Source: a virus
Length of the DNA: 14,153 nucleotides
Reading direction: 5' to 3' (one strand)
Virus record (IMG/VR): IMGVR_UViG_3300029930_000719
The number at the start of each line of letters is the position of its first letter. Within the stretch, counting starts at the first letter, position 1. The translations under genes were made by a program, and so were the position numbers. Below the pieces are notes generated by a model. It was not told the DNA's origin. It ran no database searches and was given only the letters and a program-made list of their open reading frames with translations. Below are positions 1,610 to 1,631 of the stretch, in pieces.

Positions 1610-1631
1610 AATCACCTTTTTTCACCTTTAT
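1610..1631 (+). repeat. 22-nt element AATCACCTTTTTTCACCTTTAT, copy 1 (exact copy at 12705-12726).
   Basis: Exact 22/22 identity between two short intergenic gaps. Each copy starts within 8 nt after a stop codon and lies just upstream of the next ATG. Confidence 0.9.

Follow-up and report, generated by a model that had tools for sequence, protein, structure and literature searches.

A small circular phage genome and its uncultured relatives

The window (the whole 14,153-nt stretch of DNA analysed here) carries an exact terminal overlap of 95 nt, positions 1–95 being identical to 14059–14153, and thus represents a complete circular genome of 14,058 bp. All plausible genes lie on the plus strand, the GC content is about 34%, and no Shine–Dalgarno sequences were found before the gene starts of the window. 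Few ORFs could be annotated, as PHROGs searches with 20 ORFs and Pfam searches with 10 ORFs left most of them without annotation. The annotated products include a helicase-like protein with an AAA_25 domain (9613–10572, plus strand; PHROGs/Pfam) and, from the same databases, an endolysin, a tail-fibre-like protein encoded by the largest ORF and a transglutaminase-like protein.

Two neighbouring and conserved genes without a family match encode proteins of 219 aa (423–1082) and 141 aa (1177–1602). The structural model of the 219-aa protein (pLDDT 71) gave weak fold matches (E 0.004–0.1), mostly to viral jelly-roll capsid proteins and including PRD1 P3, the iridovirus MCP and SPV1. These matches hint at a tailless virus with two capsid proteins and at an undescribed family, which would have more than 860 metagenomic homologues. 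No relatives of the capsid-like protein were found among GenBank phages.

More than 150 related contigs of 12–14 kb were found in IMG/VR and other metagenomes. A search of bacterial genomes returned only two related contigs, both from metagenome bins and one labelled uncultured Bacteroidetes bacterium. Canonical Bacteroidetes −7 boxes (TAnnTTTG) occur in the window and agree with Bacteroidetes as the host phylum; one of them, TAATTTTG at 11097–11104, lies 23 nt before the ATG at 11128. In relatives from a distant clade (L032, L037, L039 and others) only 6 nt separate the late −7 box TAACTTTG from the ATG with which the first late gene starts, so that the late mRNA would be practically leaderless. 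We regard the relatives as a large family of small uncultured Bacteroidetes phages that carry the element described below. An IMG/VR scan with an exact 17-mer returned 20 chance matches, unrelated to the window and without protein similarity to it.

An exact 22-nt repeat between genes

The copies of the repeat and their parts, named H1 and H2, are as follows:

1610–1631, plus strand: element copy A, an exact repeat between the stop of ORF 1177–1602 and the start of ORF 1644–2354, with H1 (the predicted pairing site) at about 1610–1624 and H2 (CACCTTTAT) at 1623–1631
12705–12726, plus strand: element copy B, an exact repeat, with the predicted pairing site at about 12703–12719 and H2 at 12718–12726
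10910–10935, minus strand: inverted full copy D (H1 and H2), just past the terminator of a 63-aa gene and at the left edge of an origin-like region

As the first-pass annotation had reported, the 22-mer AATCACCTTTTTTCACCTTTAT is found at 1610–1631 and 12705–12726, and there is no other site at up to three mismatches. Its expected count is 0.01, and two matches were reached in 0 of 200 shuffles. Similarity between the two copies runs to 31 nt at 90% identity. The core CACCTTTTTTCA occurs exactly at 1613, 10626 and 12708 on the plus strand and with one mismatch at 10921–10932 on the minus strand; these four sites compare with 0.28 expected, and none of 200 shuffled controls reached four. The inverted match to the origin region claimed in that annotation is likewise present at 16 of 17 positions (10916–10932). 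It can be extended to 20 of 23, the arms 1613–1635 and 10910–10932 being 87% complementary.

Both full copies occupy an intergenic gap in the order stop codon, element, ATG. At copy B, the TAA stop of ORF 11553–12704 comes directly before the element and the ATG at 12725 overlaps its last 2 nt. At copy A, the TAA stop of ORF 1177–1602 ends 7 nt before the element, but the conserved start downstream is ATGGCAACTTGG at 1644 and not the ATG at 1636. The gene most commonly found downstream of copy B among the relatives is the one that in the window spans 13006–13977; it encodes a strongly basic 323-aa protein that matches a Staphylococcus phage TreK domain (PF24229, E = 2e-22).

Conservation of the element across the family

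More than 150 relatives from metagenomes have the element. Its copies lie at late-gene junctions that flank the capsid genes, always on the coding strand, and one further copy stands inverted beside the origin. Within the window's clade, copy A is kept at the orthologous junction before the 1644 orthologue, and copy B is kept after the orthologue of 11553–12704 whichever of three different genes comes next. Copy D is present as one inverted copy at the same place in 70 or more relatives from all clades, and shares its H1 variant and spacer length with the plus-strand copies of the same genome. In a second clade, ATTTTCTTTTCACCTTTAAT is found at other junctions, one immediately before the capsid-like gene and one before the 3095 orthologue, again with a single inverted copy at D. 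The version of a third clade, TTCATTCATTTACACCTTTAAT, precedes the capsid-like gene and is also present in inverted form at D. Every coding-strand copy reads in the sense direction, and the late-gene junctions concerned differ by clade but always flank the capsid block. A third copy is seen in a few genomes. Between H2 and the following ATG there are 2 to about 35 nt, with just 2 nt in many genomes.

Since H1 (AATCACCTTTTTTCA in the window) differs by clade and H2, (C)ACCTTTAAT, is invariant, the element is composite. Any one genome has a single H1 variant, the same in all of its copies, length included. The repeat noticed in the window is a conserved functional element, and its copies within a genome evolve in concert, the inverted origin copy among them.

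A second perfect inverted copy (H1 and H2) is found near 6882 in two relatives (L024 and L169). It lies in the early region, between two small plus-strand ORFs, and contains the GTG start of the downstream ORF.

A predicted small-RNA gene at the third site

The features between the helicase-like gene and the origin-like region are:

10567–10637, minus strand: predicted small RNA (sRNA) of about 66–70 nt, on the evidence of terminator, fold and conservation
10637–10625, minus strand: predicted sRNA seed (U)GAAAAAAGGUGG, in the single-stranded 5′ end
about 10630–10601, minus strand: sRNA hairpin 1, with covarying pairs
10597–10575, minus strand: stem of the sRNA terminator, followed by a U-run; a minus-oriented intrinsic terminator
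10642–10672, minus strand: predicted sRNA promoter, with the −33 element TTTG at 10672–10669, a 19-nt spacer and the −7 box TAATTTTG at 10649–10642
10665–10856, plus strand: 63-aa gene, conserved, next to the origin and always beside the third site
10883–10904, plus strand: intrinsic terminator of the 63-aa gene transcript, a short stem with A- and T-runs on both sides, kept in relatives

The first-pass annotation had treated 10626–10637 as a third copy of the core at a gene start. The site does lie 28 nt upstream of the ATG at 10665, but it is the 5′ end of a predicted sRNA gene that runs on the other strand and is equipped with a promoter and a terminator of its own; read on that strand, it corresponds to nt +1 to +12 of the predicted RNA. 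The promoter was found by a regular-expression match on the minus strand (TTTG-N19-TAATTTTG). In Flavobacterium, the −7 box spans −12 to −5 (PMC9723704), which sets the predicted 5′ end of the sRNA at 10637 or 10636.

The same arrangement recurs throughout the family. A −7 box (TAnnTTTG or a one-base variant) followed 55–89 nt on by a hairpin and U-run was found in 124 of 125 distinct relatives, from all clades, and the layout in these is −7 box, short purine-rich stretch, hairpin, UUGUC, GC hairpin and U-run. The UUGUC, within the stretch AUCAUUUGUC, is invariant across relatives. The fold of the window's sRNA has a minimum free energy of −29.3 kcal/mol and a z-score of −4.5, and leaves the first 11 nt unpaired. 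Compensatory changes are seen at 7 of the 10 pairs of hairpin 1, and the terminator stems vary in sequence between relatives with pairing always kept. There were no Rfam matches anywhere in the window at E ≤ 1, and no tRNA or tmRNA. We also considered a coding minus-strand ORF at 10686–10492 (64 codons) and rejected it, as it is not conserved and inspection of the relatives revealed stops in all three frames. The predicted gene thus has the features of the sRNA class, namely its own promoter, a terminator in the same orientation at a conserved short distance, a non-coding sequence and an accessible, covarying seed, and it is presumably expressed, from a start that is itself predicted.

The sRNA is perfectly antisense to the plus-strand spacer between the helicase gene and the 63-aa gene. 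The model of the 63-aa protein (pLDDT 90) has a beta-beta-alpha-beta-beta topology. Pfam returned nothing for it, its best PDB fold match has E = 0.4, and no DNA-binding domain was found in these searches; because of the missing fold match the protein cannot be named as a binding protein.

Several further observations concern this locus. The leader of the 63-aa gene contains a 15-codon plus-strand ORF (10606–10653), which begins with the ATG in GACAAATGAT and extends across the stretch antisense to the sRNA; the close clade has this ORF and the distant clade lacks it. The motif GACAAA(T/C)GAT is found at 8173–8183 and 10602–10612, on the plus strand only, and its complement is the invariant single-stranded stretch of the sRNA. 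Relatives have the motif too, for example L030 near 8478. It recurs in the gap ahead of the first early gene, at which relatives have ACGAAAAAC as well, and it may serve either for a second pairing on the early leader or as a DNA operator. Between the helicase-like gene and the sRNA terminator, where the window has no insert, several relatives (L109, L132, L137, L153, L168 and others) have variable cargo genes. The product of one of these, which starts MTHGSLFSGIGGFDL, presumably resembles cytosine-5 DNA methyltransferases.

Covariation of the sRNA seed with its predicted targets

In all clades, the first ~13 nt of the sRNA are complementary to their own genome's H1. The seed and target variants of the clades are GAAGGGAAAGUGG with CACTTTYCYTTCA, GUGAAAGGAAAAUAAG with TTATTTTCYTTTCAC and GUAAGUGAAUGAA with TTCATTCATTTAC, and the covariation extends to length at all four loci (6 T in the window vs 7 T in its nearest relative). 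When the register was left free, the end of the complementarity fell at one fixed position, 3–4 nt past the −7 box, for 280 of 305 cases. Pairing per position is 84–100% from −1 to +13 and 14–38% at −2 to −4. The correspondence is also seen with targets picked without reference to the seed, by anchoring on H2 and taking the G-free stretch upstream: 290 of 317 such sites match the seed of their own genome at 11 or more of 14 positions. What the sequences show directly is the architecture of the gene, complementarity in register with the predicted 5′ end, and seed–target covariation between clades.

Among 87 distinct rows of seed plus target, 88.5% of cells are paired, compared with 74.5% in shuffles (observed value reached in 0/500). 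The covariation score is 0.507 vs 0.236 in shuffles, again reached in 0/500, and slid registers gave 51–63%. Both sides have changed in 12 of 14 seed–target pairs. Where seed and target differ, a tally through filters that were symmetric and independent of the seed gave mainly wobble-type differences (seed G with target U, 103; seed A with target C, 17; C-to-A, 30), a C-to-T bias that could partly be mutation bias of an AT-rich genome and that has roughly ten independent events behind it. The seed has G wherever any target has C, as when the reverse complement of the seed, TTTCCCTT, is set against the targets TTTTCCTT and TTTCCTTT. The pairing pattern of copy D is of the same wobble type as that of the plus-strand targets. 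In CACTTTCACTTCA, a frequent form of copy B, pairing with the seed is interrupted by a G:A mismatch, and H2 is not complementary to the sRNA.

The duplex energies with the 5′ end of the sRNA are −15.9 kcal/mol for copy A and −15.8 kcal/mol for copy B, against a background of −6.9 ± 2.5 kcal/mol. Both copies are within the top four plus-strand duplex sites of the window, behind the perfect cis-antisense site, and a few unrelated sites are similar.

The inverted copy and the origin-like region

The origin-like region (10905–11090) has AGGTCA repeats at 10918, 10947, 10957 and 10971, a GC-rich palindrome with 22-nt arms (10999–11036) and inverted TGACCT repeats at 11043 and 11063. Relatives differ in the sequence of the palindrome, which always pairs. 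The first-pass annotation had described a bipartite site with two GGT cores 10 bp apart and had related it to the origin iterons. Neither idea survives comparison across the family. The bipartite shape is confined to the window's clade, other clades having ATTTTCTTTT or TTCATTCATTTA where the window has its first CACC half, and the iterons, which read GGTCAG in the close clade, become GGTTTAAA elsewhere while (C)ACCTTTAAT is unchanged. Between clades H1 tracks the sRNA seed and not the iterons, and H2 does not covary with the iterons either. Like iterons or Rep-binding sites, the window's inverted copy AAAGGTCAAAAAAGGTG abuts and resembles the AGGTCA repeats; the difference is that the iteron sequence changes with the clade while H2 of the element stays. 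The link between element and iterons therefore appears superficial and holds in the window only.

No conserved sigma-A −7 box was found near copy D on either strand, and a minus-strand box at 11139 is specific to the window. We rejected the idea that the inverted copy is the Shine–Dalgarno-like start of a mini-ORF, with H2 as a mimic of the 16S rRNA 3′ end, since there is no conserved ORF and the host phylum does not use Shine–Dalgarno pairing.

Probable target sites for a phage-encoded sRNA

On balance, we think it probable that the 22-nt repeats are target sites in late mRNA for a phage-encoded sRNA. Each repeat would be a composite cis-element in the late polycistronic mRNA. H1, the 5′ part, would pair with the single-stranded 5′ end of the sRNA, predicted to be transcribed in the opposite direction from 10637 to about 10567. 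The 3′ part, H2 with (C)ACCTTTAAT, would be a flanking signal that does not vary and that some conserved factor, of the host or of the phage, probably recognises. The leader of the 63-aa gene, fully antisense to the sRNA, would be the cis target, and the two or three junctions that bracket the capsid-gene block would be trans targets, reached through the first ~13 nt of the sRNA. The likely effect of the sRNA is control of the late genes; this would be post-transcriptional and could serve as a timing or immunity-like switch. Ribosome loading or re-initiation might be blocked at the junction, H2 might be the site of guided cleavage, or both. The direction of regulation and the role of H2 are inferred, as is the expression of the sRNA. 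The first-pass annotation had offered, as its alternative, an mRNA leader element that acts on translation; its view of an mRNA-level element near translation starts, in a host without Shine–Dalgarno sequences, comes closer to the evidence than its preferred DNA-binding protein. A trans-acting terminator, formed by the sRNA–H1 duplex and a following U-tract, was rejected as the main idea because CACC separates the end of the duplex from UUU.

Several points count against the sRNA reading. Copy D lies on the non-coding strand without a nearby sigma-A −7 box, and RNA–RNA pairing does not explain it. H2 lacks complementarity to the sRNA. A co-evolving DNA-binding protein would also give covariation at four loci. 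Within the window alone, a few unrelated sites reach duplex energies like those of copies A and B. Finally, there are the G:A mismatch in one frequent form of copy B and the possible share of mutation bias in the C-to-T differences. Because of H2 and the inverted copy D, readings at the DNA level (protein operator or RNA-guided recognition), factor-dependent promoters at H2 and read-through early transcripts with the complementary sequence all stay alive.

Alternative explanations

The first-pass annotation had favoured a single DNA-binding protein that couples expression to replication. One sequence-specific phage protein would then bind double-stranded DNA at A, B, D and C, the last being the sRNA promoter region. 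This is possible chiefly because the origin copy is inverted, but it is not the best-supported reading and we consider it unlikely. Orientation independence comes naturally to a DNA site, and the inverted copy stands beside the origin in every clade. The concerted evolution of all copies, spacer length included, would follow as well, and site C overlaps the predicted transcription start, as operators often do. C resembles the other copies, however, only up to the predicted 5′ end of the RNA, the direct-repeat bipartite shape is not kept across clades, and H2 does not follow the iterons. The transition differences run in one direction (103 vs 17), and the coding-strand copies are always sense at the junctions. 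The conserved 63-aa protein, always encoded next to site C, would be at hand as the binder, but the Pfam and PDB searches described above (best fold E = 0.4) gave it no DNA-binding domain.

A second explanation, to which we give little credence, is that the copies are phage-specific, factor-dependent promoters, in which H2 (CACCTTTA) would be a variant form of the −7 box and H1 would bind an activator. Copies A and B would be internal late promoters, and copy D a leftward promoter into the terminator, giving a primer or an origin-activating transcript. The copies do precede the capsid block and the next block, CACCTTTA agrees with TAnnTTTG at 4 of the 6 positions specified, near-leaderless starts exist in the family (TAACTTTG-TAAGGT-ATG, the late promoter of the distant clade), and the strand-free nature of promoters would account for D. 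As a Bacteroidetes sigma-A promoter the element fits poorly, with no more than those 4 positions matched and no −33 element beside H2. The variable distance from H2 to the ATG (2 to ~35 nt) also argues against it; with the ATG only 2 nt past H2 in many genomes, a start about 5 nt downstream would lie inside the ORF. Moreover, a transcript at D would be little beyond the terminator hairpin, and the complementarity of the sRNA 5′ end to H1 would be left unaccounted for.

Recognition of DNA by the sRNA seems more improbable still. Here the sRNA and a partner would pair with H1 in the DNA at A, B and D, with H2 as a target-adjacent motif, and would act on transcription and on the origin. Targets on both DNA strands have the same invariant flanking motif, and copy D follows the wobble-type pattern of the plus-strand targets. 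There is a precedent in the same phylum, as dCas12f with an ECF sigma factor carries out RNA-guided transcription in Bacteroidetes (PMC12259090), likewise with an RNA-specified target next to a short fixed motif and upstream of genes. That system requires a Cas12f homologue, a much longer guide RNA and a minimal 5′-G motif, none of which is present here, and PHROGs searches of 20 ORFs and Pfam searches of 10 ORFs revealed no Cas12f-, TnpB- or IscB-like protein in the phage, although the host might encode such an effector. In addition, a guide at the 5′ end of a 66–70-nt RNA is unlike known systems, and there is no evident mechanism for DNA unwinding. A variant of the idea, which we hold to be equally improbable, is that the sRNA reads H1 in DNA besides or instead of RNA, together with a small partner such as the 63-aa protein or a host factor, and so marks the late junctions and the edge of the origin. 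If true, it would be RNA-guided DNA recognition without a Cas- or TnpB-like effector, and would explain why the opposite-strand copy at the origin follows the pairing rules of the other copies.

The copies might also be repeats at recombination sites or module boundaries, with no regulatory role, that gene conversion keeps alike. This would suit the different genes after copy B in different relatives, the clade-specific junctions and the sporadic extra copies, but is scarcely credible, as 22-nt direct repeats in a 14-kb circle would promote deleterious deletions and the conserved sRNA gene, the abrupt limit of similarity at its 5′ end, the invariant H2 and the strict sense orientation would all be unaccounted for.

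Comparison with known antisense systems

The reading as sRNA target sites has its closest parallels in RNAs of enterobacterial phages and of plasmids. In phage P4, seed and sites covary between related phages and set specificity. The genomes are alike in that both are small, plasmid-like replicons. P4 immunity depends on the CI RNA, which pairs with seqA and seqC in the phage's own transcripts and keeps a gene block off (PMC4825925). Both there and here, one segment of a small phage RNA has at least two complementary sites in the phage's own transcripts, which here are predicted (A, B and the cis target). The CI RNA is processed from the transcript that bears its targets, whereas the predicted sRNA has its own promoter on the opposite strand. 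The CI RNA causes premature termination on replication genes, whereas the predicted trans targets of the sRNA are in a late structural operon. Unlike in P4, an invariant H2 stands beside each target and there is an extra inverted copy at the origin. Neither the P4 CI RNA nor P1 c4 has sequence or Rfam similarity to the sRNA.

The c4 antisense RNA of P1 and P7 acts on the a2 and b2 sites upstream of icd-ant. There too, exposed bases of a short phage RNA pair with short sites that overlap the ribosome-binding region, and covarying bases set the specificity. In contrast to the arrangement predicted here, c4 comes from the same transcript as its target and regulates an antirepressor, in a host that uses Shine–Dalgarno sequences.

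Plasmid countertranscribed RNAs (pMV158 RNAII, ColE2 RNAI, R1 CopA) act only in cis-antisense, on the rep leader. The resemblance lies in a constitutively promoted RNA of about 50–100 nt with an intrinsic terminator, opposite the leader of a small gene beside an iteron-containing origin. The difference is that the 5′ end of the sRNA described here also has conserved predicted trans targets kilobases away.

Implications for small Bacteroidetes phages

Phage sRNAs that control the phage's own late genes are represented by a few enterobacterial models (P4, P1/P7). We know of no description of such control in Bacteroidetes phages, and to our knowledge Bacteroidetes have neither Shine–Dalgarno-led initiation nor Hfq. 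The covariation of seed and target in more than 150 genomes of 12–14 kb with jelly-roll-like capsids makes the predicted interaction directly testable. A host factor, or a connection to replication, may lie behind the invariant H2 and the inverted copy at the origin. The series of sRNAs and targets across the family suggests how the specificity of immunity or timing diversifies in these phages.
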